Assembly: GCA_050178385.1 (NCBI GenBank)
Contig: JBFXGD010000002.1
Location: 842-64,841 of the forward strand
Direction of reading: 5' to 3'
DNA: 64,000 nucleotides
Source of the DNA: Calditrichaceae bacterium
Lineage (GTDB): Bacteria; Calditrichota; Calditrichia; Calditrichales; JBFXGD01
Position numbers and translations under genes: made by a program. The notes under the pieces are model-generated. The model did not search any database and was not told the DNA's origin. It worked only from the letters and a program-made list of their open reading frames with translations. Each line of letters opens with the position of its first letter. Within the stretch, counting starts at the first letter, position 1. Shown here piece by piece: positions 6,590-62,131 of this stretch.

Positions 6590-7687
6590 ATGCACGAGAC
6601 TTTTTCTGTTGAAGCATTGATGGCATTGTACTCGATTCCTTCTATCGGTTCAGCCAAAATGCGAAAATTAATTTCCATTTTTAATTCGCCGCAGGCGGTG
6701 TTGGATGCAAGCGCTCGTCAATTGATGCATGTGGAAGGCATCGATCATAAAACCGCCGAAAAAATTAAGAGCGGTCCGGATGAAAAATTTGTTCGTGAAC
6801 AAATGGAGCTTATAAAATCTCACGAAGTCAAAATTTTAACATACTGGGATAAGCAGTACCCGGAAAGACTAAAACGAATTTATGATCCCCCGGCATTTTT
6901 GTTTGTCAAAGGAAATACGGATTGTCTCAACGGAACGGGTATCGGGGTTGTGGGTTCGCGGGTACCCAGTACTTATGGTAAAATTATTACTGAACAATTT
7001 GCCCGTGAACTCGTGCAGAATGATTTTACGATCGTTAGCGGATTTGCCCGTGGGGTCGATACAATAGCGCATAAAACAGCAATAAAAAACAATGGAATTA
7101 CGATTGCCGTTCTTGGAAACGGGGTTGATTTGGTATATCCTTCGGAGAATGTGCAGCTCCGTTCAGAGATTTTGAGCAAAGGCGCCGTTATAAGTGAATA
7201 TCCGATGAAGACGAATCCTGACGCAGTAAATTTTCCAAAAAGAAACAGGATCATAAGCGGTTTAAGTTATGGGGTATTAATCACGGAGGCGGGGGCAAAA
7301 AGCGGCGCCCTTATCACCGCATTTTACGCCCTTGATCAGAATCGCGAAGTTTTTTCTGTCCCGGGGCCTATAAATTCAGGGAAAAGCGCCGGTACGAATC
7401 GACTAATAAAAGAGGGCGCCAAACTTGTACAGGGCGTTCAGGATATACTTGTTGAACTTCCTGGGCAGATAAACCTGACAGGCAAAATAAAAGCTGCGGT
7501 TCCTCCACCGGATCTGAACGGATCATCAAAAGTTGTATATGATTTATTGAGCAGCGAACCACTGTATATTGATCAGATTGCGATTAAAGCTGATCTTTCA
7601 ACCGCGGAAACTTTGGGAGTTCTGCTAAGTCTTGAGCTGATGAATCTTATCCGGCAAATGGCGGGCAAAATGTTTGTTCGATTATGA
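6590..7687 (+). CDS. dprA: DNA-processing protein DprA (Smf)
   Basis: GSRVPSTYG, SGFARGVDTIAHK and AGAKSGALITA motifs typical of the DprA Rossmann-like domain. C-terminal winged-helix-like tail. Confidence 0.92.
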   Translation: MHETFSVEALMALYSIPSIGSAKMRKLISIFNSPQAVLDASARQLMHVEGIDHKTAEKIKSGPDEKFVREQMELIKSHEVKILTYWDKQYPERLKRIYDPPAFLFVKGNTDCLNGTGIGVVGSRVPSTYGKIITEQFARELVQNDFTIVSGFARGVDTIAHKTAIKNNGITIAVLGNGVDLVYPSENVQLRSEILSKGAVISEYPMKTNPDAVNFPKRNRIISGLSYGVLITEAGAKSGALITAFYALDQNREVFSVPGPINSGKSAGTNRLIKEGAKLVQGVQDILVELPGQINLTGKIKAAVPPPDLNGSSKVVYDLLSSEPLYIDQIAIKADLSTAETLGVLLSLELMNLIRQMAGKMFVRL

Positions 7688-7693
7688 CGATGT

Positions 7694-7724
7694 AAAAAAA
7701 ATGGCAGGGGTCAATACCTGCCAT
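7694..7724 (-). terminator. Intrinsic terminator for the minus-strand redox/two-component block (may also stop dprA read-through)
   Basis: Perfect 8-bp stem ATGGCAGG/CCTGCCAT (7701-7708 and 7717-7724) with an 8-nt loop. On the minus strand the hairpin is followed by a T7 run (plus-strand A-run 7694-7700). Confidence 0.8.
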
Positions 7725-7760
7725 TCATGTCTTAATTAAGAAGAATATTCGAAATTTCTA

Positions 7761-8924
7761 TTAACGTTTGAAGAAATCGTTAACCACCGTTTCAAGTTCT
7801 TTATCTTTTAACCCTGAAAGCTCACCTAAATAAAGATGACCGTCAGCCGGAAATTTATCTTCATCTTTGGATGCTATCGCTACCTTTTTGATAAATTCCT
7901 GCACCCGCTTAATGTCAGTATGATAAAAACTTACCGCGCTTTCACCGATTTTTAAATCTTTGATCTCTAAATCAAGCTGTGATGATTCCAGTTTACAAAT
8001 CCAGTTTTTGTCATATGTGGTAGTATCAAGTCTGTCGAGATCATCAAGCAGCGCTTTGTTGATCTTCTCAACTTTACCCGATACAGGTGCGTTGAAAGGG
8101 ATTGAATGCGTACCCTGGCGGATACTGAAAAGATTTTGCCCTTTTTTGATTTCCATCCCCAGATTGGGAAGTTCGATGGAATCAATTTTACCGATTAATT
8201 TTTTTGCAAAATCGTCAATACCCACATTCACTTTTCCGTCCTGGTCAATTCCGGCCCAGCAGTGGCCCTCGGAAATGAAAACACCACCTGGGATGGAAAA
8301 TTCGACCGAGGCCGGAATCTGTGTGTCTGTCAGATGTGTAATATTAACCTGAGGAACAAGCTGCCGATGGATGCGCTCTTGTCTTGTGATCAGTGATTTT
8401 TTGATCATGGCGAGCAGTTCATCTTCAGTAAACGGCTTCTGAACATAATCCAACGCACCGAATTTCATAGTCTCAACAGCTGTTTCGACAGACGCGTAAC
8501 CGGTAATAACAATCACATCTATATCCGGCCGCAAATGTTTTACGCTTTTGCATACATCCACACCATCCATTTCGGGCATTTTTAAATCGACAAATACAAA
8601 ATCATAATGGTGTTTTTGTATTAATCCTAACGCCTCTTGTCCTGATTCAACGGTATCGACGCAATATCCGTCAAGGACAAGAATTTTTCTGAAGCTGTCA
8701 AGAATTACGGCTTCGTCGTCTACCGCAAGAATTTTAGCTTTAGGATTCTCAACTTCGACGCGTTTAAGGCTTTTAGCCTCATGAGTGAAATCCAGATTCA
8801 GGCTGACTTTAAGCGCTTCTTCGCGTTCACCTAAAATTCTTTTTGTGTTGATTTTTTTGATTATCATGCGAATGATGATATCTGCAATCACAAAAAGAAT
8901 GACTGCTAAAACTAAAAATAGCAT
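7761..8924 (-). CDS. Membrane-anchored response regulator: N-terminal TM helix + REC + GcvH-like domain lacking the lipoyl lysine
   Basis: Hydrophobic N-terminus MLFLVLAVILFVIADIIIRMII. REC motifs LAVDDE, FVFVDLKMPEMDG (Asp113), VITGY, QKPF. Residues ~215-325 align by eye to glycine-cleavage H protein (HCWAGID.DGKVNVGIDDFA..IGKIDSIELP..G......APVSGKV..IN..L). The position of the lipoyl-Lys (ESVKA in E. coli GcvH) reads QGTHS. I see no DNA-binding or AAA+ domain. Confidence 0.75.
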   Translation of the reverse strand: MLFLVLAVILFVIADIIIRMIIKKINTKRILGEREEALKVSLNLDFTHEAKSLKRVEVENPKAKILAVDDEAVILDSFRKILVLDGYCVDTVESGQEALGLIQKHHYDFVFVDLKMPEMDGVDVCKSVKHLRPDIDVIVITGYASVETAVETMKFGALDYVQKPFTEDELLAMIKKSLITRQERIHRQLVPQVNITHLTDTQIPASVEFSIPGGVFISEGHCWAGIDQDGKVNVGIDDFAKKLIGKIDSIELPNLGMEIKKGQNLFSIRQGTHSIPFNAPVSGKVEKINKALLDDLDRLDTTTYDKNWICKLESSQLDLEIKDLKIGESAVSFYHTDIKRVQEFIKKVAIASKDEDKFPADGHLYLGELSGLKDKELETVVNDFFKR

Positions 8925-8996
8925 TTTTTGGCTCCTTGGATAAGATATACATTTATAATCACATTATAAGTTTAAATTTATTTTTTCTGCTCTCCT

Positions 8997-9803
8997 CTAA
9001 ATTCTGTCTGAGCTGCAGGGTGTTAAATGCTTTAGTTCGTATTCAAGGTCAGAAGGAATGATACGATAAAACCACCCTTTGAAATAGGGATCCTTTTCTA
9101 TAATCTGTTTATCCTTCAGCAAATGATCATTTATTTCTATAATTCTTCCCGTCATCGGCGCAAGAATATTGTGAACAAGATTATCAGTAGTGACAAGTTG
9201 GGCACACGCGTTACCCTGGACAATCTCTTCATCCATATTTAAAAGTTCTATATGGTCAATGCTGTCAACCGTTCTCAAAAGCAAATCTGTGATGCCTGTT
9301 AATACAGAACCGTCATGTTCGATGTAAAGCCAGCTCCCATAACCTAGACGAAAATATTTTGCGGGGCAGGGGATATATATAATCGATGCATCATTTTTTA
9401 CTGAATTTACATGTTTTAAAGATTTATTTATTTCAGCATATTTTAAACCCCGAAAAACAGAACTCAGCAGTTCATCTACCGTAAATGGTTTTGGCAGAAA
9501 ATCTATCGCGCCTGTGTATAACGATTTTACCGCATTTTCAACCGTGGAATATCCGGTAGTCATTATAACCGGAGAATCCAGATTCTGAGGAATGATCTCA
9601 TCCAGAAACATAAAACCGTCCATCTCAGGGAGCATAATATCACATATGATCAGCCGGTATCTGTTTTTGGCGATTTTATTCAAACCTTCATTCGCGTCAA
9701 GCGAAGAATCAACACTAAAGCCTTCGTTGGTACAAAGTTTGATTACGGAATCAATGATCACCTGTTCATCATCAATAATAAGTATATCATATTCTTTGCT
9801 CAT
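8997..9803 (-). CDS. Response regulator: REC + GcvH-like domain lacking the lipoyl lysine
   Basis: REC motifs IIDDEQ, LIICDIMLPEMDG, MTTGY, LPKPF. The C-terminal ~115 aa is GcvH-like (WLYIEHDGSVLTGITDLL..VDSIDHIELL......LAPMTGRIIEIN..L......DPYFKGWFYRI). The Lys position reads TTDNL. No HTH recognisable. Confidence 0.75.
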   Translation of the reverse strand: MSKEYDILIIDDEQVIIDSVIKLCTNEGFSVDSSLDANEGLNKIAKNRYRLIICDIMLPEMDGFMFLDEIIPQNLDSPVIMTTGYSTVENAVKSLYTGAIDFLPKPFTVDELLSSVFRGLKYAEINKSLKHVNSVKNDASIIYIPCPAKYFRLGYGSWLYIEHDGSVLTGITDLLLRTVDSIDHIELLNMDEEIVQGNACAQLVTTDNLVHNILAPMTGRIIEINDHLLKDKQIIEKDPYFKGWFYRIIPSDLEYELKHLTPCSSDRI

Positions 9804-11845: not shown

Positions 11846-13009
11846 TTAAAGTTTTGTTTTTGTTAAGCTGCCTGGCATTGCAGCCGGGTATTTATAATTA
11901 TCATGGCAATTGTCACATGTCGGTTTTTTGTTAAAATTGAGATCAATATGGCATGATTCACAATCCATTGCACTATGGTTTTCATCAAGGACTAATCCGG
12001 TTACGCGATGTTTGAATGACTCGGGATTCCAGTTTTTGTGACAGCTGGTGCATGTTGGATTCAGACTTGAAAAGATTTTATTCTCGCCATGACAAGTCTG
12101 ACATCTAAGGGATGCGTGGTAACTTTTGAGCGGCCATTTTGCGGTAACAGAATGGTCGAACGGTCCCTTTTGCTTGTTGCTGTGACACTTAGTACAATTA
12201 TCATCAGCATGGCAGGAGAAGCAGGTTTCATGTTTTTCATCAACTGATTTACTTGCAGCTACAGGTTTTGCCGTGGCTACCTGTTCCTTATAAGTTGATT
12301 TTGAAAGGTCGTGACAACGACTACAGCTCTCGTTGGTATGACAATCAACGCATTTAAATCCAAACTTTCCTGAATGTTCATTATGATAGAAAGTCACATA
12401 TTTGCCCTCTTTGGCCGCGGTTTCGTAAACCACTTTATCCGGTTCTGTAATCTTTGGGTGTTTTGAGCCAATAATGTCACTTTGATCAGAAATCTTTTTC
12501 TCGGGAGAGGCGGCACCTTTTAAAACATGGCATACATTGCAGTCAGTTGTATGACTCCATTCGCGGTGACAGCTTAAACACTGCCGGTGATAGGCGCCTT
12601 TTAGGCCCGGTTTGCTGAGATCAGCTCTTATGGGTTCTGTCTCATGACATTCCTTACACGCGGCAATCTTACCGGGAGGGTTATGATGATGACATGATGT
12701 ACAGCTTCCGGACATTTGTCCCATTTCAGCATGAAGCCTGTGCGGGAAAACCGTCGGTTCGTATATGTTTGATAAAATATCGATATTCAAAGTATCGGGT
12801 CCCTCATCAGGAGTATGGTGAATGGTTACCACATTCCGTTTAAATTCAGGGCAGCATGTAAGACACGGGTCCGCTTCCGTCGGATTGTCGCAGCTGTGAC
12901 AGGATTTGCAATCCAGAGCAAGTTTTGAATGATGTTCAGTACTGACTGTCTGTGCAAACAGCGGGGTGATGATGAGTAAAAAGCCAATAATCAGATTTAA
13001 TTTTTTCAT
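11846..13009 (-). CDS. Periplasmic multihaem c-type cytochrome (13 CXXCH motifs, cytochrome c3-family-like)
   Basis: Signal peptide MKKLNLIIGFLLIITPLFAQ. There are 13 CXXCH motifs: CKSCH, CTSCH, CKECH, CLSCH, CNVCH, CVDCH, CSRCH, CFSCH, CTKCH, CQTCH, CTSCH, CESCH, CDNCH. No CXXCK motif is present. The ATG overlaps the upstream gene's stop (ATGA at 13006-13009). Confidence 0.9.
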   Translation of the reverse strand: MKKLNLIIGFLLIITPLFAQTVSTEHHSKLALDCKSCHSCDNPTEADPCLTCCPEFKRNVVTIHHTPDEGPDTLNIDILSNIYEPTVFPHRLHAEMGQMSGSCTSCHHHNPPGKIAACKECHETEPIRADLSKPGLKGAYHRQCLSCHREWSHTTDCNVCHVLKGAASPEKKISDQSDIIGSKHPKITEPDKVVYETAAKEGKYVTFYHNEHSGKFGFKCVDCHTNESCSRCHDLSKSTYKEQVATAKPVAASKSVDEKHETCFSCHADDNCTKCHSNKQKGPFDHSVTAKWPLKSYHASLRCQTCHGENKIFSSLNPTCTSCHKNWNPESFKHRVTGLVLDENHSAMDCESCHIDLNFNKKPTCDNCHDNYKYPAAMPGSLTKTKL

Positions 13010-15153: not shown

Positions 15154-15267
15154 TTTCGACTCCTTGTATTCGATTTCAAAATAATAATTTCACAAAATCA
15201 GCACGACAGATAAACTAATCGCACAAATATTTAATACCAATAGAACCATTCGTTACAGTTGGTGATA

Positions 15268-15281
15268 GCAAAATTTGTGCC
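15268..15281 (-). promoter_or_regulatory. Candidate sigma-54 (-24/-12) promoter for the nrfC-like operon
   Basis: The minus strand reads aaaGGCACaaattTTGCta, which is GG-N10-GC with exact spacing and a good -12 TTGCT. It lies ~115 nt upstream of the ATG at 15153 and is followed by an AAGGAG RBS. Confidence 0.5.
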
Positions 15282-15376
15282 TTTCTTTCGGAGAACGCGT
15301 TTTTAGATGATTTAATCTGTTAAATCTATGACAACGCTGCTTCCTCGCAATGGGTGGAATTTTACTTTCTCAGGTT

Positions 15377-15918: not shown

Positions 15919-16797
15919 ATGTACAAAATTGTTGAAGCAGGCTTTCTTGCGGAAAATATTAAACGTTTTGTGATTGAAGCGCCGAGAATTGCCAGCAAAC
16001 GAAAAGCGGGTCAATTTGTTATTATACGAATTGATGAGCATGGCGAAAGAATCCCTTTGACCATCGCGGATTCCGACAAAGAAAAGGGAACGATTACGAT
16101 TATTGTCCAGGGGATTGGAAAAACCACAAGCGCTCTGAATCTGAAAGAAGCGGGAGATCAGATTCTGGATGTTGTCGGACCGTTGGGGCACGAGTCTGAA
16201 ATCGAAAAATTTGGTACTGTCGTAAGTATTGGCGGCGGAGTGGGAACGGCAATTGCTTTTCCGACAGCGGTTGCTCTAAAAGATGCCGGAAATTATGTGA
16301 TCACAATTAACGGCGCCAGAAGCAAGGATATGGTTATCCTGGAAGATGAACTAAGGTCAGTAAGCGATGAGGCATACGTGACTACTGATGACGGATCTTA
16401 CGGATTCCACGGTTTTGTAACCCAGAAACTGCAGGAACTGCTCGATGCCGGCAAAAAAATTGATTTTGTTCTGGCCATTGGTCCGATCCCGATGATGAAA
16501 GCGGTAGCCGAAGTGACACGGCCGTATAAAATAAAAACAATTGTCAGTCTGAACCCCATTATGGTTGACGGTACAGGAATGTGCGGTGGATGCCGGGTTG
16601 TTGTGGGTAATGAATCTAAATTTGCCTGTGTTGATGGTCCGGAATTTGACGCGCATCTTGTCGACTTCAAAAATCTTTCCGACCGGAACAAGATGTATTC
16701 CAAACACGAGAAACTATCACTGGAAAAATTCAAACACGAATGCAATCTGGATAAACAGGCTAAAGCGCACAAGGAGCTCGAACAAGTTGAGAGCTGA
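15919..16797 (+). CDS. nfnA: NADH-dependent reduced ferredoxin:NADP+ oxidoreductase subunit A (NfnA / SudB-like FAD + 2Fe-2S subunit)
   Basis: MYKIVEAGFLAENIKRFVIEAPRIASKRKAGQFVIIRIDEHGERIPLTIADSD..GTITIIVQGIGKTT is typical of NfnA/SudB. C-terminal CGGCRV...C cluster motif. Confidence 0.85.
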   Translation: MYKIVEAGFLAENIKRFVIEAPRIASKRKAGQFVIIRIDEHGERIPLTIADSDKEKGTITIIVQGIGKTTSALNLKEAGDQILDVVGPLGHESEIEKFGTVVSIGGGVGTAIAFPTAVALKDAGNYVITINGARSKDMVILEDELRSVSDEAYVTTDDGSYGFHGFVTQKLQELLDAGKKIDFVLAIGPIPMMKAVAEVTRPYKIKTIVSLNPIMVDGTGMCGGCRVVVGNESKFACVDGPEFDAHLVDFKNLSDRNKMYSKHEKLSLEKFKHECNLDKQAKAHKELEQVES

Positions 16798-16863
16798 TTT
16801 TTAAATTATTTAGAAATTTAATATTTAGAAGAAATAAATTTAAATAAAAAAAATGGTGAACGA

Positions 16864-18291
16864 ATGCAAAAGTTGACAGCAAAAGAACGCATGAAAATAG
16901 CCCGGCATCCTATGGTTGAACAGGATCATCTGGAACGGGGACATAATTTCAAAGAGGTAAACCTCGGATATACCACTCAGATGGCACAGGAAGAGGCGTT
17001 AAGATGTTTACAATGCGCGAAGCCGACATGTGTACAGGGGTGTCCGGTTAATATACAAATTAAGGATTTTGTTACTCTGATCGCGGAAGGTGATTTTATT
17101 GGTGCCGTGCACAAAATTAAAGAAGACAACGCTCTCCCCGCGATTTGCGGACGTGTTTGTCCTCAGGAAGAGCAGTGTGAGCAGGTTTGTGTCGTGGCGA
17201 AGAGAGGCGAACCTGTTGCCATTGGAAATCTGGAACGGTTTGTGGCTGATTATGAAAGAACAAGCGGGAAAGTCGAACTGCCGAAAGTGGGAGCTCCAAC
17301 TGGGAAAAAAGTTGCTATAGTTGGCAGCGGTCCGGCCGGATTGAGCTGCGCTAAAGATATGATTCAGATGGGACATAAAGTGACCGTATTCGAAGCGCTC
17401 CATGAGTTGGGCGGGGTGCTGGTCTATGGAATTCCGGAATTTCGTCTGCCGAAAGATATCGTGCGGCAGGAAATCGAAGGTCTACAAAAAATGGGCGTTG
17501 AGTTTGTTACCGATGCCGTAATCGGAAGGACAACCACTATCGATGAACTCATGGAAGAAGAAGGGTATGACTCCGTGTTTGTTGGCGTGGGCGCCGGACT
17601 GCCATGGTTTCTTGGAATTCCTGGTGAAAATCTGATCGGAGTTTATTCGGCAAATGAATTTCTTACCCGTGTTAATTTGATGAAGGCGTACGATTTTCCA
17701 AATTTCGATTCGCCTGTTTTGGATTGCAAAGATAAGAATATTGCTGTTTTCGGTGGTGGCAACACCGCGATGGACTCAGTACGCACCGCGCTCAGGTTAG
17801 GAGCGAAAAACGCTTATATTGTATATCGCCGTTCTGACAAGGAAATGCCGGCACGCGCTGAGGAAGTAAAACATGCCAAGGAAGAGGGAATCCAGTTTCT
17901 GATGCTGACGAGTCCGCTTGAATTTGTCGGGGACGAAAGCGGCTGGCTGAATTCCATGAGATGCATCAAAATGGAACTTGGTGAACCTGATGCATCGGGC
18001 CGGCGGCGTCCGGTACCCATTGAAGATTCAGAGTTCGTTATGGAAATTGATTTGGCAATTATCGCTATCGGAAATGGATCAAATCCCCTTATCAAACAAA
18101 CTTCACCCGAAATAGAATTCACAAAACGCGGCACGATCGCCGTTGATAGTGAGACAATGAAAACATCCAAAAAAGGCGTGTTCGCCGGCGGGGATATCGT
18201 AACCGGCGGGGCAACAGTCATTCTGGCGATGGGGGCCGGCAGAAAAGCCGCGGCCGCCATGAATGATTTTATGAATAACGGCGATTGGTAA
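16864..18291 (+). CDS. nfnB: NfnB / glutamate synthase small-chain-like (GltD/SudA family) FAD/NAD(P) oxidoreductase
   Basis: N-terminal FeS motifs CLQCAKPTCVQGCP and CGRVCPQEEQCEQVC. Dinucleotide folds VAIVGSGPAGLSCA and VFGGGNTAMD. C-terminal GVFAGGDIVTGGATVI. Confidence 0.88.
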   Translation: MQKLTAKERMKIARHPMVEQDHLERGHNFKEVNLGYTTQMAQEEALRCLQCAKPTCVQGCPVNIQIKDFVTLIAEGDFIGAVHKIKEDNALPAICGRVCPQEEQCEQVCVVAKRGEPVAIGNLERFVADYERTSGKVELPKVGAPTGKKVAIVGSGPAGLSCAKDMIQMGHKVTVFEALHELGGVLVYGIPEFRLPKDIVRQEIEGLQKMGVEFVTDAVIGRTTTIDELMEEEGYDSVFVGVGAGLPWFLGIPGENLIGVYSANEFLTRVNLMKAYDFPNFDSPVLDCKDKNIAVFGGGNTAMDSVRTALRLGAKNAYIVYRRSDKEMPARAEEVKHAKEEGIQFLMLTSPLEFVGDESGWLNSMRCIKMELGEPDASGRRRPVPIEDSEFVMEIDLAIIAIGNGSNPLIKQTSPEIEFTKRGTIAVDSETMKTSKKGVFAGGDIVTGGATVILAMGAGRKAAAAMNDFMNNGDW

Positions 18292-26111: not shown

Positions 26112-26651
26112 ATGAGCATTGAGATGCGTATCAATGAGAGTGTTCTTCATTTGGAGAAAGGCGATATTACCGCGATGTCGGTAGATGCCATTGTTAATGC
26201 CGCAAATCAGCACCTGATTCTCGGTGGAGGCGTTGCGGGGGCAATTTCAACAAAAGGCGGACCCTCGATACAAGAGGAATGCAACAGAATCGGAGGAACT
26301 TATGTCGGTGGGGCGGTTATCACCGGCGGCGGTAATCTCCCGGTTAAAAAGGTTATCCACGCTGTGGGACCCAAAATGGGTGAAGGGGAAGAAGATACCA
26401 AATTAAAAAACGCCACAATGAACAGTCTGATTCTTGCAGAAACATATGGACTTGAGAGTATCGCTTTCCCGGCGATCAGTACCGGTATATTCGGATACCC
26501 GGTTGAACGGTGCGCGGAGATAATGCTCAGCGCGGCAATTGGATACCTGCAAAGACCGACCAAAATCAAAGATCTTTATTTCTGTCTGTGGAGCGATGCC
26601 GATTACACGGTCTTCCAAACAACGTTAGAGTCAAAAATGGAAAATTTATAA
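26112..26651 (+). CDS. Macro domain protein (O-acetyl-ADP-ribose deacetylase-like)
   Basis: GDITAMSVDAIVNAAN..L..GGGVAGAI and IAFPAISTGIFGYP macro-domain signatures. Confidence 0.9.
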   Translation: MSIEMRINESVLHLEKGDITAMSVDAIVNAANQHLILGGGVAGAISTKGGPSIQEECNRIGGTYVGGAVITGGGNLPVKKVIHAVGPKMGEGEEDTKLKNATMNSLILAETYGLESIAFPAISTGIFGYPVERCAEIMLSAAIGYLQRPTKIKDLYFCLWSDADYTVFQTTLESKMENL

Positions 26652-28564: not shown

Positions 28565-30091
28565 CTACATCACCATTTTTTCGTTAAATTCCTGAATCTG
28601 ATTTCGTCCGTTTCGTTTCGCATAATACAGCGCCGTGTCCGATTGATTTATTAAACTCTTATAATCCATAGAATCTTCCTGCAAAGATGCAACTCCGATG
28701 CTTACGGTAATATTTCCGTTGGGCTGCACCTCTTCGTGATCAAATTTGGCGCTTTCGATTCTTTCCCTTAAACGTTCGGCGAGAATTTTTGCTCCGTCTC
28801 TGTCAACCGCCGGCAGAATTACCGCAAATTCCTCCCCACCGTATCTTGCGACGATGTCGTTTTCACGAACGGTCTCTTTGAGTATATGACCGAGTTTACG
28901 AAGAACTTCATCACCGGCCTGATGACCAAGAGTATCGTTATAATTTTTAAAAAAATCAACATCCAGAATCAGAAGTGAGAGTCCAGTTTTGGTACGATTA
29001 TGACGTACCACCTCTTCTTTTAATCTCAGCTCAAAATATCGGAAATTGTGCAATTCAGTCATTCCGTCCGTATATGAAAGCTGTTCAACTTCATTATATA
29101 ACGCCGCGTTTGTTACGGCAACTGATATCATATTGCTTAGAATGGAAATCTGCTGTAATTCCCGTTCCTCATAATTCAGGTCCCTTACCCTGGGGCCCAG
29201 ACAGATAAGCCCTTCAAGTGAATTTTTAACAATAATGGGGGTAATAATCTCAATATGCAGGTTTAGCATCCTTTTTAACGCGGATGAATTTTTTAGTTTA
29301 TCGCTCATTTCCCTCAGCTTGACCGGATAACCGCGTGTTTCGAAAAATTTTTCCAGCGGATCACTTTTTTGAATCACAAGATCAGCGATATCTTTTTGAA
29401 AAAATCCCTTTGAATTAGTGACTTCGAGCCTTCTGGTCGCCGGCTTCATCGCATATAGAAATAACACGCTCTTGCAGGAAAACTGCCCAATAATAGTCAG
29501 CAGCGTGGAGTTGATCAGGCGCTTCATTTCAAGTATCGAATTGAGTTCCATAGAAATTTCAAACAAGGTATGAAGACCAAAAATATTTTTTCTCAATTCC
29601 CTGTTTTTCTCTATCAGAGTTTGATTAAGGTTGTTGATTTGCCTGTTAGCAGTGGTAAGCTGCAAGGATTGGCTAAGAAGTAGTTCATTCAGTTTTTTTA
29701 GCCGTAAGGCCGAATTGACGCGCGCGATGAGTTCATCCAGATGAAAAGGTTTTACCAAATAATCATCAGCGCCCGCACCGAGGCCCTGCACAATGTCACT
29801 CACCGTGTTTTTGGCGGTGATAATAATGATAGGGGTATAATTAGAGCCCTGATCAATCTTTTTTATTTCTTTAATTACCTCCAGCCCGGACATCCCCGGA
29901 AGCATTATATCCATAAGAATCAGGTCGGGTTCTTCATCCTTGAATTTTTGTAAACCCACTTCACCGTTTTCAGCTTCGATGGCCGTATAATTCTGAGATT
30001 TTAGATACTTTTTAAGTATCTTCATCATGTCCTGGTGGTCTTCGACGATCAATATTTTTTTTTGGTCTGTAACTTCCATATTTTTTCTCAT
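28565..30091 (-). CDS. Response regulator with GAF-like and GGDEF (diguanylate cyclase) domains
   Basis: REC motifs ILIVEDH, LILMDIMLPGMSG, KPF. Coiled linker, a central GAF-like segment, and a GGDEF domain with RYGGEEFAVILP. Confidence 0.88.
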   Translation of the reverse strand: MRKNMEVTDQKKILIVEDHQDMMKILKKYLKSQNYTAIEAENGEVGLQKFKDEEPDLILMDIMLPGMSGLEVIKEIKKIDQGSNYTPIIIITAKNTVSDIVQGLGAGADDYLVKPFHLDELIARVNSALRLKKLNELLLSQSLQLTTANRQINNLNQTLIEKNRELRKNIFGLHTLFEISMELNSILEMKRLINSTLLTIIGQFSCKSVLFLYAMKPATRRLEVTNSKGFFQKDIADLVIQKSDPLEKFFETRGYPVKLREMSDKLKNSSALKRMLNLHIEIITPIIVKNSLEGLICLGPRVRDLNYEERELQQISILSNMISVAVTNAALYNEVEQLSYTDGMTELHNFRYFELRLKEEVVRHNRTKTGLSLLILDVDFFKNYNDTLGHQAGDEVLRKLGHILKETVRENDIVARYGGEEFAVILPAVDRDGAKILAERLRERIESAKFDHEEVQPNGNITVSIGVASLQEDSMDYKSLINQSDTALYYAKRNGRNQIQEFNEKMVM

Positions 30092-30715: not shown

Positions 30716-33361
30716 TTATAATTTCAAATGTACCTGAGAATAGGGAATAAGCCGCACAGGCCCGTATAATCCATATTCCCTTGAAAAATACTCGTTCTGA
30801 CATCCGGCATTCTGTCCCGCCAGATAATTTGACAGGTTGTTCGCGACCGTGATGCTTATTTTATTTTCTCCCGACGTAACATAGTTTGTGATATCAAAAA
30901 ACCATGGAGGGGAATAAATACTCCCGACGAATTGATCATTAACGGATAATCTGCACCAGTCGCTTAAATCTCCCAGATCAAGCAGCAGTTTTTTGCTGTC
31001 CAGATAATCTTCGTTAATTACGATAAGTTTGTGATAAGTAAGAAAGTCGCTGTAGAACGGAAACGCGGCGCTCTGATCTCCAAGATGAACCTTATTTTTA
31101 AAATGTTTGCTTTCCAGGAACCAGTTTTCAGTGCTTACCACCAGAATCGCAAGTTTATTTTTTATTTGATAAGTTAATTTTTTAATCTCCGTGTCTTTCC
31201 TGACAGTCACTGAATAATCGCCCAGTTCTCTTTGCCATCCTGTGAGTTCCAGTTCAGATTCATTTTGTTTAAGAATCTCACAATGATCCATCTGCGACGC
31301 ACTTAGCTGCCAGTATTTTTCAGCTTTCGTCTTATCGATAATAATCAGATTGCTTTCTCCGCCGTGTAATTTTACAAAAAAGGTCAGACCGTCTGAGTCA
31401 CATATCCATTCCGGGACGGGTACTTTCCGCGTGCTTCCAAATTCCAGTTTGTAAGGGACGCCAATAAGACGCGTTCTAAATTTTATCTCAATTTTTTCAT
31501 CTCTATTGGAATTAAAAAGAAACAGAATATAGGATTCATCCGTTTCCCGTAAGATATATTTGAGTCCGGGTCGTTTTGTTTCAGGGAAGATAATTATATG
31601 CGGTTTAAGGTCCTGCAGAACTTCGGAGAAACGGTCGATATTTTCCTGAAAATATCCCATTCCTCCTGAACCGTTAAGTTTGAAATGCGTGCTGGGAAGA
31701 TCGGCTTCTTCCGGCCATATTTCACTCTTTAGCTCATTAAACCCGTCTTGATTATTTGATGAATAATCTTTTAAAGGGAGCTGCGCCAAAGCAATAACAA
31801 AGCCGCCATTGGCATAAAAAGCCGCCAATTTTTTCAAAGTGGTCAGAGGCAAAGTATCTATACCGGGTAAAATGATAAATTTGAAATTTTTGTCCCGAAA
31901 TTTTAACTTGCCGTTTTCAACCTGACAAAATTTATCATCTTCCAGAGTACTAAACTCAATCACATCATAATCAAGACTCAATTCTTCTGCTTTTTTTATC
32001 GTTTTAAAAAATGAAGTCTTGTCTTCATCAAGATCGGGATACACAATAAGGAATTCAGGTCTGTGTTTACCTTCCCGAAGATATAATTCCATTCCCCGGA
32101 GATGATCGTACCAGTGTATGTATTCTTTAAAATTGGGATCAGTTTCTGGAAGATCGCTGTAAAATTTGTTGTCAAACGCGGGTAGTTTAAAATAGAACCT
32201 GTTCACTCCGCGGCTCATGAGATAATCAATCTGATATTTCTTTTCGCGAAATGAATATCCGGTATTTATAATATCATGGATGCCCGCTTTAATTTCCGTG
32301 ATATTGTCTTTCAATGCTTGTGCGGAAGCTCTTTTCAAATTTGCGATTACCTGATATAAATATGGGCTTTCGGGATAGAATTGTTTTTCATCTATCATAA
32401 ATATGCATTTTGAACTGAATTGAGTTCCGGGAATGAGTGAATTTATCGCGTTAACCGTAAATTCATTTTTATTCTTCTTGCTGCTTAGGAGCGGGTGAAT
32501 TTCCGTGTCTATGTATCCGCAAAAAAACCGGTTGAATTTTATGCTTTGACTGAATGATTTTCCACCGTTTAGTAAAAATTCCGTCATATCATAAATAAAA
32601 TCACTTTGAGTCGATTTTTTATACGCTTTTCTGATGGAATCGGTTGAGGAAACTAAAAAATCATTCTTTATGATACGGTCCAGATCGAAGTAGATGCCTC
32701 TCTCGGGATGATTCTGATTTGAATCGATATTGTTGTCAATCTTACCGTCAGTTAAAGACGAATAGTCATGATAAAATACCGGCTTTTTTTCAAAGTAGAC
32801 CAGTAATTTCCGTATGACGATAATCCGAATATCATCAACAGGGGCAGTTCTGACGTGAAGTACGCCGCTATTTGGATTAAGATATTCTGTGATATCCTTA
32901 ATGTTCTGAGTCGGTGTTGTGCCTGGTGACATGAACACCGCTTCTATATCTTCAGGTGAAGGAATTGTAAGAATTGCGTGTTTTTTATTTGTTTTAATGA
33001 TATAAATTTCAGGTTCATCTCCCCAAAAACGAAAAATATCAAACCCGAAAAAATTCTGATTTTTATAGTACTGGTTCGTACAGAAAAGCAGAGGCTGTAT
33101 CATTTGCCTTAACCGATCCCGGTTTTTATTTAACAACAGGAGAGAATTATGCGAAATATACCGGGTGCAATTAATATCCGAATCAGAGTTTTGAACAGTA
33201 TGAAAAAATGATTCCGGTTCCCCGGAAATATTCCTTATCGACAGAGACTGTACCTTCATAGAATTGAGGATGACCAGAATGTCAGATAAATACGCGTTGT
33301 CAAGCCGGCCGTTAATGTCAATAAATGCTGAAACCGTCTGAGAAGGTTTTTGGGGTATCAA
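30716..33361 (-). CDS. Large hypothetical protein (881 aa), glycoside-hydrolase-like: GH42-middle-like flavodoxin-type segment and C-terminal galactose-binding-like jelly roll
   Basis: No signal peptide seen. The central FKFIILPGIDTLPLTTLKKLAAFYANGGFVIAL resembles the GH42 trimerisation/GATase-like domain. The C-terminal DWCRLSVNDQFVG..PPWFFDIT.YV.SGENKISITVANNL...YGLYGPVRLIPY resembles GH2-type sugar-binding domains. TTG start. Confidence 0.45.
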   Translation of the reverse strand: MIPQKPSQTVSAFIDINGRLDNAYLSDILVILNSMKVQSLSIRNISGEPESFFHTVQNSDSDINCTRYISHNSLLLLNKNRDRLRQMIQPLLFCTNQYYKNQNFFGFDIFRFWGDEPEIYIIKTNKKHAILTIPSPEDIEAVFMSPGTTPTQNIKDITEYLNPNSGVLHVRTAPVDDIRIIVIRKLLVYFEKKPVFYHDYSSLTDGKIDNNIDSNQNHPERGIYFDLDRIIKNDFLVSSTDSIRKAYKKSTQSDFIYDMTEFLLNGGKSFSQSIKFNRFFCGYIDTEIHPLLSSKKNKNEFTVNAINSLIPGTQFSSKCIFMIDEKQFYPESPYLYQVIANLKRASAQALKDNITEIKAGIHDIINTGYSFREKKYQIDYLMSRGVNRFYFKLPAFDNKFYSDLPETDPNFKEYIHWYDHLRGMELYLREGKHRPEFLIVYPDLDEDKTSFFKTIKKAEELSLDYDVIEFSTLEDDKFCQVENGKLKFRDKNFKFIILPGIDTLPLTTLKKLAAFYANGGFVIALAQLPLKDYSSNNQDGFNELKSEIWPEEADLPSTHFKLNGSGGMGYFQENIDRFSEVLQDLKPHIIIFPETKRPGLKYILRETDESYILFLFNSNRDEKIEIKFRTRLIGVPYKLEFGSTRKVPVPEWICDSDGLTFFVKLHGGESNLIIIDKTKAEKYWQLSASQMDHCEILKQNESELELTGWQRELGDYSVTVRKDTEIKKLTYQIKNKLAILVVSTENWFLESKHFKNKVHLGDQSAAFPFYSDFLTYHKLIVINEDYLDSKKLLLDLGDLSDWCRLSVNDQFVGSIYSPPWFFDITNYVTSGENKISITVANNLSNYLAGQNAGCQNEYFSREYGLYGPVRLIPYSQVHLKL

Positions 33362-57965: not shown

Positions 57966-58943
57966 ATGAAGAAAATATTATTTATCATATCCGGTATCTC
58001 GATGCTGTTTTTCGCCGGTTGTCAAAATTCCAGTGACCCTTCAGTATCAGGTGTTGATGAAAGCGCCAACAACGAAGCGATTGAATATATCCTTGAACAG
58101 GATTCGGTCGATGTTCTTTTTGATCCGATTGATGATGTTTCCGAAGACAATTTCGGTGATGAGCCGGACTGGATGGCCGCGAAGATTTCGGATACAAGTT
58201 CGGACAGCGTATCTTACCGTTTTGGAAGAATCGGAACCCGGCCGGTGGAGCGAACAATCCAAATTATTTACGATACGGATACGACCGCGACAGCCTATAT
58301 CTATAAGAAGCTTGAAGGCAAATTTATCGTCATCAAAAAAGAAATTCTTCCTGACACATTGCAATTGACGAGATATGAAAAACCGATGATTCATGAAACC
58401 AATAAGATTGTTCATCTGAAAAAAATCCGTAATACCGATCAGCCGAGGTTAAACTGGAAAATCAGTGATATATCGCTCACGGAAGGAAATTCACCAGAAA
58501 ATACGGTCGAAATTGTAGAATTGACAATCATGCCTTCAGATCAGGATGATGTGGTGATTACCGATCCTCTTGATTACTGGTTAAACGGCGTCAACGTATT
58601 TACTTTCCCGAGATGGACCGATGTGACGCTTCGGGTTGTTGTAAAAAACAGTTCAGCAAATAAGATAGAATACCCGAAAGGTACACTGGCAACCGAGAAA
58701 GTATTGCTGCATTATGGTCGGAATCGCCGGGGAAATCATGCAAGAACTCCTTTGTTTTGGGTAGGTCAGAATGAGAATGGTAATAATGTATACGAAGGAA
58801 CCTGGACGGTAAAACAGTTCGCCGGATATCATCATGCCGTGGTAGATGTGATAGATAACGGCACGATTCTGGAAAGTGATGGCGACGCGTTCCCATACAA
58901 TTCGAATACCTGGTCAACACCATATCGTGTGACGAATTTTTGA
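57966..58943 (+). CDS. Hypothetical lipoprotein (325 aa)
   Basis: Lipobox MLFFAGC. Acidic N-terminal linker followed by a beta-rich body. I recognise no family motif. Confidence 0.5.
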   Translation: MKKILFIISGISMLFFAGCQNSSDPSVSGVDESANNEAIEYILEQDSVDVLFDPIDDVSEDNFGDEPDWMAAKISDTSSDSVSYRFGRIGTRPVERTIQIIYDTDTTATAYIYKKLEGKFIVIKKEILPDTLQLTRYEKPMIHETNKIVHLKKIRNTDQPRLNWKISDISLTEGNSPENTVEIVELTIMPSDQDDVVITDPLDYWLNGVNVFTFPRWTDVTLRVVVKNSSANKIEYPKGTLATEKVLLHYGRNRRGNHARTPLFWVGQNENGNNVYEGTWTVKQFAGYHHAVVDVIDNGTILESDGDAFPYNSNTWSTPYRVTNF

Positions 58944-59096: not shown

Positions 59097-60593
59097 ATGA
59101 AAATAAAATATTTTATATTACTGCTTATGCTTGCGGTAAATCTTAATGGGCAGACTACTGATACGCAGGAAGTCCGGGACAGACTGCAAAGGCTCGCGCT
59201 GAAAATCACGGAAATTAGAAGGCAGGCTACCAGATATCAGAATCAGCCGGCGATAGAAAAGATTGAAACTGCTCAGCAGGAATATCTCCTTGCGGTTGAT
59301 TTTCTCAGACAGGATCCCCCCGAATTACTTAAAGCCAAATTTCATTTTCTGAATGCTGACCGGTTGGCGGACCAGGCGGCTAAACTGGTTTTATACAAAC
59401 CTCTTTCCAGATTGAAAAATGAGCTTGATCAGGCGATACATCGCGCCGAACTTGCGGTACACCGGTCAGGGAATGACGAAGCGCGTTATTTTCTGACAAA
59501 AGCAAGCGCTTTTCGCGGTAAAGCGGAAGAAGAGTTAAGGAATGGCAGACCGATTCGCAGCATGGAACTGGCGCGGATTTCTTACTATTTTGCTCAAAAA
59601 ACGATTGACATAGCAGAAGGTAATCTAAATACCGGCGACACGGATAATAGTTATGAAGATAAATTACTCAATATCGAAAATTTATATGGCGAAGTTTCAG
59701 GCAGCCAAAATAACAACGCGGATCTTGATGACCTTTTGAAAAAATCACGAATGTTTATAGATAAATCCGGGAGACTGTATGAACAGGGTTTGGTCAGACA
59801 GGCGCTGGTTCAATTACAGATAAGTGAGCGTCTTTTGTATCGCGCGCTGGATATTAGTCAGAGCAATGGAACAAACCGCGAGAATGAGTACAAAATTAAT
59901 TTATATTCATTAAGACGCTATATAGAAGCGGTGGAGGCCGGTTTTTCGGAGAACACTCCGGCGAGAGCCTCTGAATTTCTCCGCAAAGCCAGGCAATTTT
60001 ACCAGGACGCTGAGAAAGCATTGAACGCAAACCAATACGCCGAATTTGAGAAAAGTGTCGCCTTGTCCAACCGCTTCGCCGGAAAAGCGCTGCAGCTGAA
60101 CAACACAGAACCCACTGATGATATTGGGAACATTCCCGACAGGTTAAGTGAGATCGGGCAGATTTTCCGGTTACAAAATGCAAAGACAAACAATTCAGGG
60201 GATGCCATAGTAATCTTTTTCAACGAACAGGCGGAAAAAAATTTAGAGGTGGCCCGCCGCGCTTATGAAAACGGAAACAATGCAAAGGCTGTGGTAAGGC
60301 TGCAGATAGCGCTTCGTTTTATAAATCGCGCCGAATACCTGCTCGGCAGGCAAAAAGATTCCAATCTCAACAGCATGGATTATGAAGGTTTCATAGACAG
60401 ATATCGCGACATACTTGAAAGATTAAAACAAAATCGCGACATCGATAACAGAACCGTTTCCATGATAGAAGCCATAGATGATATGTTGGATGTCCTGGAA
60501 AAAAATTACAGAAAGGGAGATACCGGAACGGCTTCTGAGCTTGCCAATATTATTCAGAACCAGGTAAATGAATTGTTGAAAAATAGCCGTTGA
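59097..60593 (+). CDS. Secreted all-helical repeat protein (about six ~50-75-aa helical-hairpin repeats, DUF4398-like)
   Basis: Signal peptide MKIKYFILLLMLAVNLNG. Recurrent pattern ..A...L.KA......AE.....G......A......A......A (for example ARYFLTKASAFRGKAEEELRNG, ASEFLRKARQFYQDAEKALNAN, EKNLEVARRAYENGNNAKA). Confidence 0.55.
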   Translation: MKIKYFILLLMLAVNLNGQTTDTQEVRDRLQRLALKITEIRRQATRYQNQPAIEKIETAQQEYLLAVDFLRQDPPELLKAKFHFLNADRLADQAAKLVLYKPLSRLKNELDQAIHRAELAVHRSGNDEARYFLTKASAFRGKAEEELRNGRPIRSMELARISYYFAQKTIDIAEGNLNTGDTDNSYEDKLLNIENLYGEVSGSQNNNADLDDLLKKSRMFIDKSGRLYEQGLVRQALVQLQISERLLYRALDISQSNGTNRENEYKINLYSLRRYIEAVEAGFSENTPARASEFLRKARQFYQDAEKALNANQYAEFEKSVALSNRFAGKALQLNNTEPTDDIGNIPDRLSEIGQIFRLQNAKTNNSGDAIVIFFNEQAEKNLEVARRAYENGNNAKAVVRLQIALRFINRAEYLLGRQKDSNLNSMDYEGFIDRYRDILERLKQNRDIDNRTVSMIEAIDDMLDVLEKNYRKGDTGTASELANIIQNQVNELLKNSR

Positions 60594-62131
60594 GTAAGAA
60601 CCGCATGAATAAATCCATCCTTATGTTCATGGTTTTGACCTTAGCGGTAATGACCGGACAACTGACGGCCCAGACCGGCGCATCCCATAACTATCACCTC
60701 CTGATTGAAGAAATCAGCCTGTTCAGGCAATATTACCCAATGGAAAACGATAGTCAGGCGCTGATTGATTCAGCCGCCGGCTATGCGCAAAACAATGATT
60801 TCGATATGGCTGTGGTTTTTCTTGAGCAGATTATCTCAAAAATAAAAACAGAAAACGCCGTGGCTGCGCCCAATGCCGAAAATTCTCTAAATATTTATCC
60901 TGATCATAGTGATCGATTCGAATGGATGATCAGATCCGGAATTGATTTTAACCGCCAGGAATTTGAGATCAATTATGTGGAAAACGATTCACTCCTCACA
61001 GAAGAAATTCAAAAACCTTTTATTGGATTTCAGATGCTGTACTGGCTTATCCGAAAACCTGGAAACACGGGCCTGACGGTCAAAAACAATTTCCGGTATG
61101 ATGAAGAAAGCCTTGAAGAAAATTTGGAAATTAGACATATTTTTTCCGGTTTAAAAGTGAACGGGTATATGGAATATGGATTTAGTTATGACAAGAACAG
61201 CGTATATGAAGATTTTGGCTATATGGAGACCAGCGGTATCCAGCACCTGAGCTGGAATATTACGCCTGAAGATCAGTTACAAATAGACAATACAATCCGA
61301 TACAAAAAATATAAGAATGCGTCCAGAAGCATCCCTGATTTTGTAAAAAATACACTTAGTCTGAATCTTTTTCATCTCAATGAGCCCGGAAGCTCGACCA
61401 ATTTCTATTATAATGCGGATATGAATGAAAGTCTGAAGTACTCAAATAACGATTTTTTGGAACAGAATTTTAAATTATCACTAAGCAACTTGTTTACAAA
61501 TAGTTTTAAAAATGAATTAAGTCTGGGGTTCCGTCACAACCGTTATGCTTATTCGTTTGATGAAAGTGTCAACAGAAATCAGTCAAGAGTGTTCTCGGCG
61601 GAGACAGGAGCCGATTTTTTATTAAGGAAGAATTTGTTTTTGGAATCAGATTACATTCTGGATTACAAAAATTATTCACAAAAAACCGACCAGGAACCGG
61701 ATTACATTCAGCACCGGTTTGATACGGTATTAAAAAAATATTTTAATGATTATTTTGATTTTCAACTGGGTTACCTGTTTGAAACAAGGCATCACTTTTT
61801 GAGAGGGAATGCGGGGAAGGTATATGTAGATGAACAAAATTATACCGGCAATGGAATCATTACGGGGATTGATTATTCAGGGGGAAATAATACATTTATT
61901 TCCTTAAGTGGATCTTATACGTGGCGAAGATATCCCTATGCGCAGGATGCGGCGCTGTCCATTTATTCGGACCGTAATGTGTTTAGTCTTTTTTTAATAG
62001 GACAGATTCCGGTTGCCGGAAATATTATATTCAATATATTCGCTTCCTATGATAATGATCAGGATAAAGACTGGGATAAAAATGATACAAGAAGCGCGCT
62101 TTTTACATCCGAGATTGAATATAAGTTTTGA
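60590..62131 (+). CDS. Hypothetical outer-membrane beta-barrel protein (513 aa)
   Basis: Signal peptide. An N-terminal helical segment followed by alternating amphipathic strands rich in Y/N/D. C-terminal ...SEIEYKF (terminal Phe, OMP signature). The TTG start overlaps the upstream stop (GTTGA). Confidence 0.55.
   Translation: MSKNRMNKSILMFMVLTLAVMTGQLTAQTGASHNYHLLIEEISLFRQYYPMENDSQALIDSAAGYAQNNDFDMAVVFLEQIISKIKTENAVAAPNAENSLNIYPDHSDRFEWMIRSGIDFNRQEFEINYVENDSLLTEEIQKPFIGFQMLYWLIRKPGNTGLTVKNNFRYDEESLEENLEIRHIFSGLKVNGYMEYGFSYDKNSVYEDFGYMETSGIQHLSWNITPEDQLQIDNTIRYKKYKNASRSIPDFVKNTLSLNLFHLNEPGSSTNFYYNADMNESLKYSNNDFLEQNFKLSLSNLFTNSFKNELSLGFRHNRYAYSFDESVNRNQSRVFSAETGADFLLRKNLFLESDYILDYKNYSQKTDQEPDYIQHRFDTVLKKYFNDYFDFQLGYLFETRHHFLRGNAGKVYVDEQNYTGNGIITGIDYSGGNNTFISLSGSYTWRRYPYAQDAALSIYSDRNVFSLFLIGQIPVAGNIIFNIFASYDNDQDKDWDKNDTRSALFTSEIEYKF

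Follow-up and report, generated by a model that had tools for sequence, protein, structure and literature searches.

To our knowledge, almost every response regulator characterised so far has as its target DNA, cyclic di-GMP (c-di-GMP) or chemotaxis enzymes, or one of a small number of familiar partner proteins. CheY, RssB and PhyR are response regulators with a protein-binding output, directed at the flagellar switch, a protease adaptor target and an anti-sigma factor, respectively, and we know of none among them with the fold of the glycine cleavage H-protein (GcvH) or with an N-terminal membrane helix bearing a conserved face. Here we analyse two adjacent genes in a 64,000-nucleotide (nt) stretch of DNA from a Calditrichaceae bacterium (GenBank assembly GCA_050178385.1, contig JBFXGD010000002.1, positions 842 to 64,841; hereafter the window), whose products, RR-A (387 amino acids, aa) and RR-B (268 aa), resemble CheY, RssB and PhyR in joining an orthodox receiver to a non-enzymatic, non-DNA-binding effector for which phosphorylation-dependent partner binding is presumed. 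Both genes lie in a six-gene cassette that also encodes an iron-sulfur (FeS) protein, an NrfD-family membrane subunit, a multihaem cytochrome c and a sensor histidine kinase. We conclude that RR-A and RR-B are response regulators, most likely with a protein-interaction rather than a DNA-binding output, and that the signalling-respiratory cassette to which they belong is widespread although uncharacterised; the mechanism proposed for them below is hypothetical.

With GcvH (PF01597) the output domains of RR-A and RR-B share the fold, 25-28% identity and the core motifs H-x-W, G-I-(T/D)-D, P-x-x-G, (A/S)-P-(V/M)-(S/T)-G and G/N-W. They differ from it in having no lipoyl Lys, in the unconserved sequence of the corresponding hairpin, in scores below the NCBIfam cut-offs, in their fusion to a receiver (to which RR-A adds a membrane helix and a 57-residue tail) and in the absence of the partner genes gcvT and gcvP nearby. 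A precedent for redeployment of this fold comes from the Hdr-like sulfur-oxidation system, whose lipoate-binding protein LbpA (PMC6067878) is GcvH-like but works with an Hdr-type FeS redox complex instead of in glycine cleavage; relatives of the RR-A and RR-B domains are likewise found fused to, or beside, HdrC-, HdrB- and HdrD-like proteins. However, LbpA keeps and needs its lipoylated Lys and is accompanied by dedicated ligases (PMC6067878), whereas RR-A and RR-B are Lys-less response regulators and no hdr-like or ligase genes were found among the Pfam-scanned open reading frames of the window. The N-terminal barrel-sandwich hybrids of NqrA and RnfC offer a further parallel, being Lys-less versions of the lipoyl/H-protein-like fold that form a structural part of a cytoplasm-facing respiratory subunit. 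Matches of the window domains to these families fall below thresholds (PF05896, 16.9 bits, E 0.0074, cut-off 25; PF13375, 14.1 bits, E 0.051, cut-off 25.6; NqrA chains by phmmer, E 0.007-0.013), and neither NqrA nor RnfC is a signalling protein: their complexes are Na+/H+-translocating NADH or ferredoxin oxidoreductases, not modules of the NrfD type.

A literature search on the receiver-GcvH architecture, on lysine-less GcvH-like proteins and on NrfD modules of Ignavibacteria returned nothing relevant, and no curated NCBIfam model covers the architecture of RR-A and RR-B, which gave only generic receiver matches. The architecture is nevertheless already visible in databases through automated domain tags: JGI labels such proteins 'CheY-like chemotaxis protein/glycine cleavage system H lipoate-binding protein', and in NCBI records they are named either 'response regulator' or, in error, 'glycine cleavage system protein H'.

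Receivers and H-protein-like domains of RR-A and RR-B

An initial interpretation made without database searches (the sequence-only reading) had described the two proteins as paralogous response regulators with intact receiver motifs and a GcvH-like C-terminal domain, and each part of this description stands. Against the Pfam receiver family (Response_reg, PF00072; gathering cut-off 30.2 bits) RR-A and RR-B score 105.3 and 89.4 bits, and against GCV_H (cut-off 22.2 bits) 66.9 bits (E 2e-18) and 56.4 bits (E 3.6e-15), respectively; no DNA-binding, enzymatic or other known output domain was found in either with Pfam or NCBIfam. BLASTP aligns the two with 34% identity over 264 residues (E 8e-41). 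The receiver signature (D69, D70, D113, T141 and K163 in RR-A; D11, D12, D55, T83 and K105 in RR-B) occupies invariant columns in a 92-sequence alignment spanning both families and in one of 59 sequences. The closest receivers are of the NtrC1, NtrX and AtoC type, the long alpha5 linker helix included, and Foldseek searches of the Protein Data Bank (PDB) with AlphaFold2 models built on family alignments returned receivers of the NtrC1, NtrX and PmrA type. To judge by these features RR-A and RR-B are genuine two-component response regulators. Orthologues of RR-A and RR-B are 57-75% identical; among those of RR-A the mean identity is 83% in the receiver, 64% in the GcvH-like domain and 46% over the last 22 residues, and the value for the GcvH-like domain, set against that of the receiver, indicates that this domain is itself under purifying selection.

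The models, of good overall confidence (mean predicted local distance difference test, pLDDT, 84.6 for RR-A and 89.6 for RR-B; predicted template modelling score, pTM, 0.85 for RR-B), place the output domains firmly in the H-protein fold. Superposition on the E. coli and T. thermophilus H-proteins gave template modelling scores, normalised to the target, of 0.88-0.92 for RR-A with root-mean-square deviations of 1.5-1.9 A, and superposition of RR-B on H-proteins gave 0.83-0.86 and 1.4-1.7 A, the matched chains being 3a8i_E, 3ab9, 1onl_A and 3a7a_B. Failure of the domains to score or fold as GcvH, which would have contradicted the sequence-only reading, was thus not seen. No solved chain holding a receiver and an H-protein domain together was present among the Foldseek PDB matches.

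The same interpretation had held that the lipoyl Lys is replaced, that the proteins are therefore not classical lipoyl carriers, and that gcvT and gcvP are not nearby; here too our results agree. In an ungapped phmmer alignment Thr272 of RR-A falls opposite the lipoyl Lys of E. coli and T. maritima GcvH, and counting seven residues back from (A/S)P(V/M)(S/T)G, the position of Lys in canonical 129-aa GcvH, leads to Thr272 in RR-A and Asn208 in RR-B; the predicted hairpin tips (G271-T272 and T206-L209) coincide with these positions. Since no Lys is present anywhere in the window hairpins SIRQGTHSIPFN (RR-A) and LVTTDNLVHNIL (RR-B), regapping cannot restore a lipoylation site. Nor did we find an invariant Lys in any hairpin column among 119 RR-A and 120 RR-B orthologues, the commonest being in the column of window Arg269 for RR-A (91 of 119) and in those of Val204 and Thr206 for RR-B (75-79 of 120). 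The acidic and Ser residues of the ESVKA..D motif are not kept, both proteins (68.5 and 62.5 bits) score well under the 117-bit cut-off of the NCBIfam GcvH model NF002270, and our Pfam scan, which covered every non-nested open reading frame (ORF) of at least 150 aa in the window, found no gcvT, gcvP or lipoate ligase. By these sequence criteria RR-A and RR-B are not lipoyl carriers and would have no part in glycine cleavage.

A six-gene cassette with a putative di-haem sensor kinase

The features of the cassette are collected in Table 1. Between a promoter-like element (AGGCACAAATTTTGCT, the sole match in the window to TGGCACN5TTGCW with one mismatch) and a terminator-like hairpin, beyond which the next gene, dprA (6590-7687), is convergent, the six genes look like one operon; those for the NrfD protein and the cytochrome overlap by 4 nt.

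Table 1. Positions in the window of the six cassette genes, their domains and flanking signals
Feature	Position	Strand	Basis
RR-A, membrane-anchored response regulator, 387 aa	7761..8924	-	Pfam, alignments, model
RR-A transmembrane helix, residues 1-22	8859-8924	-	hydropathy
RR-A receiver, residues 65-175	8400-8732	-	Pfam
RR-A GcvH-like domain, residues 219-330	7935-8270	-	Pfam
RR-A tail, residues 331-387	7764-7934	-	alignment
RR-B, soluble response regulator, 268 aa	8997..9803	-	Pfam, alignments, model
RR-B receiver, residues 7-116	9456-9785	-	Pfam
RR-B GcvH-like domain, residues 157-258	9030-9335	-	Pfam
Sensor histidine kinase, 623 aa	9818..11689	-	Pfam, conservation
Periplasmic multihaem cytochrome c, c3/HmcA-like repeats, 387 aa, 13 CxxCH, signal peptide	11846..13009	-	Pfam, motifs
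NrfD-family membrane subunit, HybB/HmcC-like, 414 aa, ~10 transmembrane helices	13006..14250	-	Pfam, NCBIfam, hydropathy
Tat-exported, C-tail-anchored 4x[4Fe-4S]-type protein, HybA/HmcB-like, 297 aa	14260..15153	-	Pfam, NCBIfam
Sigma-54-type promoter-like element AGGCACAAATTTTGCT	15267..15282	-	GG-N10-GC core intact, ~115 nt upstream of FeS start codon
Intrinsic-terminator-like hairpin, 10-bp stem and T-run, 35 nt past RR-A stop	7699..7726	-	sequence

The FeS protein matches Fer4_11 (78 bits) and TAT_signal in Pfam, and has the N-terminal sequence SRRDFF and a hydrophobic C-tail; the NrfD protein matches NrfD (72 bits), and the cytochrome Cytochrom_CIII and Cytochrome_C7. All three fall below the NCBIfam equivalog cut-offs of the systems that they most resemble. 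The FeS and NrfD proteins are not HybA and HybB by this measure (257.7 bits against 263 and 360.8 against 450), and the Pfam scan found no hydrogenase genes adjoining the cassette. The three also score below the cut-offs for the A, B and C subunits of the Hmc complex (HmcABCDEF; HmcA 46 against 400, HmcB 338 against 420, HmcC 262 against 550), of which HmcD, HmcE and HmcF are absent, and no cytochrome b or HdrD-like gene was found in the cassette by the same scan. A described counterpart is a module of tail-anchored Tat-dependent FeS protein, HybB-like quinol oxidase and multihaem cytochrome c reported by the Palmer laboratory (10.1101/2023.11.02.564894), and the first three cassette genes fit its description: a Tat signal and a C-tail on the FeS protein, a HybB-like partner and a multihaem cytochrome in the periplasm. 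Unlike that module, for which no conserved flanking genes were reported (10.1101/2023.11.02.564894), the cassette invariably carries the kinase and two regulators. The hmc operon of D. vulgaris is followed by the rrf1/rrf2 regulators (10.1101/2023.11.02.564894), so that a receiver-domain gene follows the redox genes there as it does here. This likeness is an analogy only: we considered whether Rrf1 might itself be a receiver-GcvH-like protein, but its homologues are treated as single-domain receiver matches (10.64898/2026.06.30.735679).

The kinase comprises a first transmembrane helix, a periplasmic domain, a second transmembrane helix, HAMP, HisKA (with H287) and HATPase_c. Its periplasmic domain contains the sequences CYACH (112-116) and CWEADCH (156-162), and the resulting CxxCH and Cx4CH motifs, together with H164, are kept in 94% of 69 orthologues, among which H287 is conserved in 100%. 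Both are motifs for attachment of c-type haem, the Cx4CH spacing occurring also in tetrahaem cytochrome c3, and we infer that the kinase binds haem and senses redox state. The HATPase_c domain is split by a Cys/His-rich insert of ~120 residues (about 418-540), in which C434, H438, C493, C496, C507, C510 and C528 are kept in 93-99% of the same orthologues; the insert resembles zinc ribbons or a metal site of another kind.

Divergent from the cassette, at 15919-18291 on the plus strand, lie genes for a PyrK-like FAD/NAD/[2Fe-2S] protein and for an NADPH-dependent FeS flavoprotein resembling GltD/SudA; the two could possibly constitute a cytoplasmic NAD(P)H:acceptor oxidoreductase.

Conservation of the cassette

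A pattern scan for relatives of the C-terminal region of RR-A, using one genome per species, found them encoded in 448 genome stretches. By this count the cassette would be present in at least 448 species-level genomes of Calditrichia, Ignavibacteria and KSB1. The best 80 of these belong to Calditrichia, Ignavibacteria/Melioribacter and KSB1, and all are metagenome-assembled genomes or other uncultured assemblies. Gene order was examined in 83 related loci from these three lineages, in which the order FeS protein, NrfD subunit, cytochrome, kinase, RR-B, RR-A is identical, shorter patterns corresponding to contig ends; a kinase with the conserved H287 stands immediately upstream of the regulators in all examined loci.

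The flanking elements are less constant. In Calditrichia and KSB1 a sigma-54-type motif is found again at much the same place (loci L004, L007, L011, L012, L013 and L015), but of 57 related loci 41, mostly from Ignavibacteria, have no such motif before the cassette, and we rejected a sigma-54 promoter as a defining feature of the cassette. We likewise set aside a functional link to Macro-domain proteins. In ~22 of the 83 loci, all Ignavibacteria-type (among them L018:10694-11251, L017, L021, L023-L025 and L002:12082-12603), the gene that comes straight after RR-A, on the same strand, encodes a Macro domain, and an operon of GcvH-L, SirTM and Macro genes is known from Firmicutes. The window homologue (26112-26651, plus strand) is not adjacent, lying 17 kb from the cassette, and no sirtuin or ADP-ribosyltransferase was seen; the arrangement probably reflects lineage synteny.

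A membrane helix and tail shared with receiver-less proteins

RR-A opens, as the sequence-only reading had noticed, with a single hydrophobic helix, and it ends in an extra tail of some 60 residues; both are borne out by the wider comparison. Residues 1-19 have a mean hydropathy of 2.8, and the positive residues at or after the end of this segment (R19, K23, K24, K28 and R29) place the receiver in the cytoplasm, as it would need to be in order to meet the kinase. F11, D15 and R19 are invariant in 53 of 53 orthologues and, being spaced i, i+4, i+8, lie on one helical face, a pattern that suggests a specific intramembrane helix-helix contact rather than a passive anchor. The tail (residues 331-387) is present and conserved in orthologues and closes with a sequence of roughly the form h-Y-x-G-E/G ... 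W ... (E/D)FF(K/R)R. Beyond the two domains, the RR-A model shows an N-terminal helix (2-41), a helix at 327-352, a disordered segment (354-364) and two short helices within 368-385.

These additions have counterparts outside response regulators. The C-terminal 190 residues of RR-A, tail included, match over 187 columns (hhalign E 1e-56) a family of proteins of 215-250 aa in which no receiver is present and a GcvH-like domain stands between a membrane helix at the N-terminus and the tail seen in RR-A. Their N-termini, too, form a hydrophobic stretch similar to that of RR-A and holding an Asp or Glu. As the module of helix, GcvH-like domain and tail occurs in this way without a receiver, RR-A looks like such a module into which a receiver has been inserted. 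Receiver-less or sensor-type relatives stand directly upstream of an FeS-NrfD gene pair in all five readable clusters (L002, L084, L090, L091 and the Zixibacteria locus L092), and the next gene after the pair encodes a second GcvH-like protein in four of these clusters and a kinase in L092. The FeS protein carries a Tat signal in L084 and L091 and none in L002, L090 and L092. Wherever the contig extends far enough (L002, L084, L090 and L092) a kinase of the di-haem type comes after these genes, the CxxCH and Cx4CH motifs being recorded for L084, L090 and L092. The second GcvH-like protein of L002 is soluble and has an N-terminal C-x12-C-x5-C-x2-C motif.

In L002 (467-4133, minus strand) the GcvH-like/FeS/NrfD cluster is preceded by an 83-aa protein with a similar membrane helix and a tail-like TLYDGG motif, and in about 20 Ignavibacteria loci a receiver-less GcvH-like cluster is divergent from the six-gene cassette. 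A 675-aa protein (P0299) with the appearance of a natural fusion of RR-B and RR-A was set aside, because its junction is an intergenic read-through that would place a membrane helix between two cytoplasmic receivers; we regard it as a gene-call or assembly artefact.

The wider lysine-less family and the conserved Cys/His residues of RR-B

A profile made from both window GcvH-like domains, searched against 1.84 billion cluster representatives, retrieved 4713 proteins with E<=1e-3, of which 1092 reach E<=1e-10. Among the best 146, from which architectures were read, three forms occur besides rarer multi-domain ones: receiver plus domain; membrane helix plus domain plus tail; and a protein of 550-590 aa in which a signal sequence and a periplasmic region of ~330 residues precede membrane helix, domain and tail. 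Only seven of these 146 proteins have Lys at the hairpin position. Two of the rarer forms involve Hdr-type components. At L086 (2608-5549) a second receiver-GcvH-like gene precedes that for P0432, which joins a receiver and a GcvH-like domain to an HdrC-like 2x[4Fe-4S] part, and an HdrB-like CCG gene follows it; the regulators of this locus pair with a Cache-type kinase. P0346 (1391 aa) contains three tandem GcvH-like copies with an FAD-oxidase and an HdrD-like module. No lipoyl Lys was found in the GcvH-like copies of P0432, L086 or P0346. At L088 a receiver-GcvH-like gene adjoins a CxxCH and Cx4CH kinase with no FeS-NrfD pair nearby.

RR-B has a conserved feature of its own. C146 and C263 are present in 120 of 120 orthologues, C200 in 113 and H211, which sits in the former lipoyl hairpin, in 115, and the orthologues end in a conserved CSSDR[LI]. 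C146, C200, H211 and C263 may form a metal or redox site around the former hairpin, and within the window proteins this set is the one hint in favour of the cofactor- or ligand-carrier function that the sequence-only reading had offered beside a protein-protein switch.

Possible functions of the regulators

Our tentative preference, which we regard as a distinct possibility short of probable, is that the GcvH-like domain of RR-A and RR-B is a phosphorylation-switched protein-binding adaptor at a membrane redox module. On this proposal the kinase would read the periplasmic redox state through two c-type haems and would phosphorylate both RR-A and RR-B; phosphorylation of the NtrC1-like receiver would alter how the GcvH-like domain, in RR-A together with the tail and helix, engages a partner at the cytoplasmic membrane face, of which the NrfD/HybB-like subunit or the FeS anchor would be the first candidate and the kinase the second; and the quinone-interacting module would have its electron flow adjusted directly, with no transcriptional step. 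A protein-protein switch, unproven as it is, fits all the findings, given that neither regulator has a DNA-binding or enzymatic domain, that synteny with the membrane redox module is tight and that one face of the membrane helix is conserved. In addition, the pTM of the RR-B model suggests a defined resting packing of receiver and GcvH-like domain, and the fusions to HdrC- and HdrD-like parts suggest that the GcvH-like domain works with FeS redox proteins.

Several points weigh against such an adaptor role. The partner is assigned from gene neighbourhood alone. The FeS protein and cytochrome of the cassette are periplasmic, so that from the cytoplasm just the NrfD subunit, the C-tail of the FeS protein and the kinase could be reached. 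As a neighbour of the domain family the di-haem kinase (L084, L088, L090 and L092) is no less constant than the FeS-NrfD pair, and this constancy, with the lack of the pair in L088, means that the kinase or an unlinked protein could be the target. The conserved Cys/His set of RR-B could signify involvement of a cofactor, and RR-B, having neither membrane helix nor tail, may act differently from RR-A.

Of the alternatives, we consider it unlikely, though worth retaining, that the regulators exert an indirect control on transcription, in which the GcvH-like domain, once phosphorylated, would bind or release a transcription factor, or act by partner switching, with the cassette promoter as a regulated target; such a factor might be the enhancer-binding response regulator of the sigma-54 type found with paralogous di-haem kinases. 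The NtrC-like receivers and the sigma-54-type element that precedes the cassette in the window and in further loci of Calditrichia and KSB1 accord with this, as do L001, where a di-haem kinase without the Cys-rich insert and a sigma-54 response regulator adjoin the cassette, and L092, where the related cluster closes with a di-haem kinase and a sigma-54 response regulator. However, no sigma-54 activator gene was found among the Pfam-scanned ORFs of the window, the promoter motif is missing from most of the related loci in which it was sought, and the invariant helix face and the receiver-less proteins beside FeS-NrfD pairs would be left unexplained. A slightly less probable role for the GcvH-like proteins is that of accessory co-sensors of the di-haem kinase, which would modulate its kinase or phosphatase activity or serve as a phosphate sink, and would not be respiratory effectors. 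One kinase does serve two regulators, a CxxCH and Cx4CH kinase occurs in every cluster type that contains the domain family, even at L088, and the branch with a large periplasmic domain, transmembrane helix, GcvH-like domain and tail looks like a sensor; yet L086 uses a Cache-type kinase and Hdr-like genes instead, and the HdrC- and HdrD-like fusions point to redox proteins as partners.

An equally improbable reading, in our estimate, is that the GcvH-like domain binds a cofactor other than lipoate, a metal or a small ligand, as a second input or as a carrier to the redox complex. H-proteins possess a surface cleft that holds the lipoyl arm, as seen in the pea H-protein structures, and the near-invariant Cys and His residues of RR-B, one of them in the former hairpin, and the Cys motif of the soluble GcvH-like protein in related clusters would suit such a role. 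Against this, RR-A and most family members do not have these residues, C200 and H211 are expected to lie several residues apart in the hairpin ladder, and no cofactor-attachment motif is conserved across the family. We attach almost no weight to the remaining reading, in which the proteins carry lipoyl groups in the usual way or, as decoy H-proteins, regulate the enzymes of glycine cleavage or lipoylation: the fold and the limited identity to H-proteins are all that speaks for it, and it is opposed by the Lys-free hairpins and the lack of an invariant Lys in ~120 orthologues of each protein, by the loss of the acidic and Ser residues of the lipoylation motif, by the absence of gcvT, gcvP and lipoate ligase from the scanned ORFs and by the low NCBIfam scores.

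The adaptor proposal admits a bolder extension, which we find possible and rather doubtful, namely that the Lys-less GcvH-like domain with its helix and tail is an unrecognised regulatory or adaptor subunit of NrfD/HybB- and Hdr-type modules, of which RR-A and RR-B would be the phospho-switchable versions, and that the di-haem kinase gates a quinone-interacting complex within seconds and without transcription. If true, this would constitute a class of two-component output not described so far. Should the regulators bind the membrane module, they would exert direct post-translational two-component control over respiratory electron flow, and a role would be indicated for a large family (the 4713 representatives above) labelled 'glycine cleavage system protein H'; even a conservative reading corrects a systematic mis-annotation. 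The six-gene unit offers mutational targets in the phosphoacceptor residues D113 and D55, in F11, D15 and R19, in the RR-A tail and in the Cys/His set of RR-B.

Other features of the window

Elsewhere in the window, 28565-30091 (minus strand) encodes a 508-aa receiver-GGDEF diguanylate cyclase, with ~200 residues free of any domain match between the two, that appears unrelated to the cassette. An 881-aa ORF at 30716-33361 (minus strand) gave a weak C-terminal Glyco_hydro_2_N match alone in Pfam, and ORFs of 325 aa (57966-58943) and 513 aa (60590-62131), both on the plus strand, gave no Pfam match; the latter is preceded by a 498-aa ORF with a weak match to HEPN.

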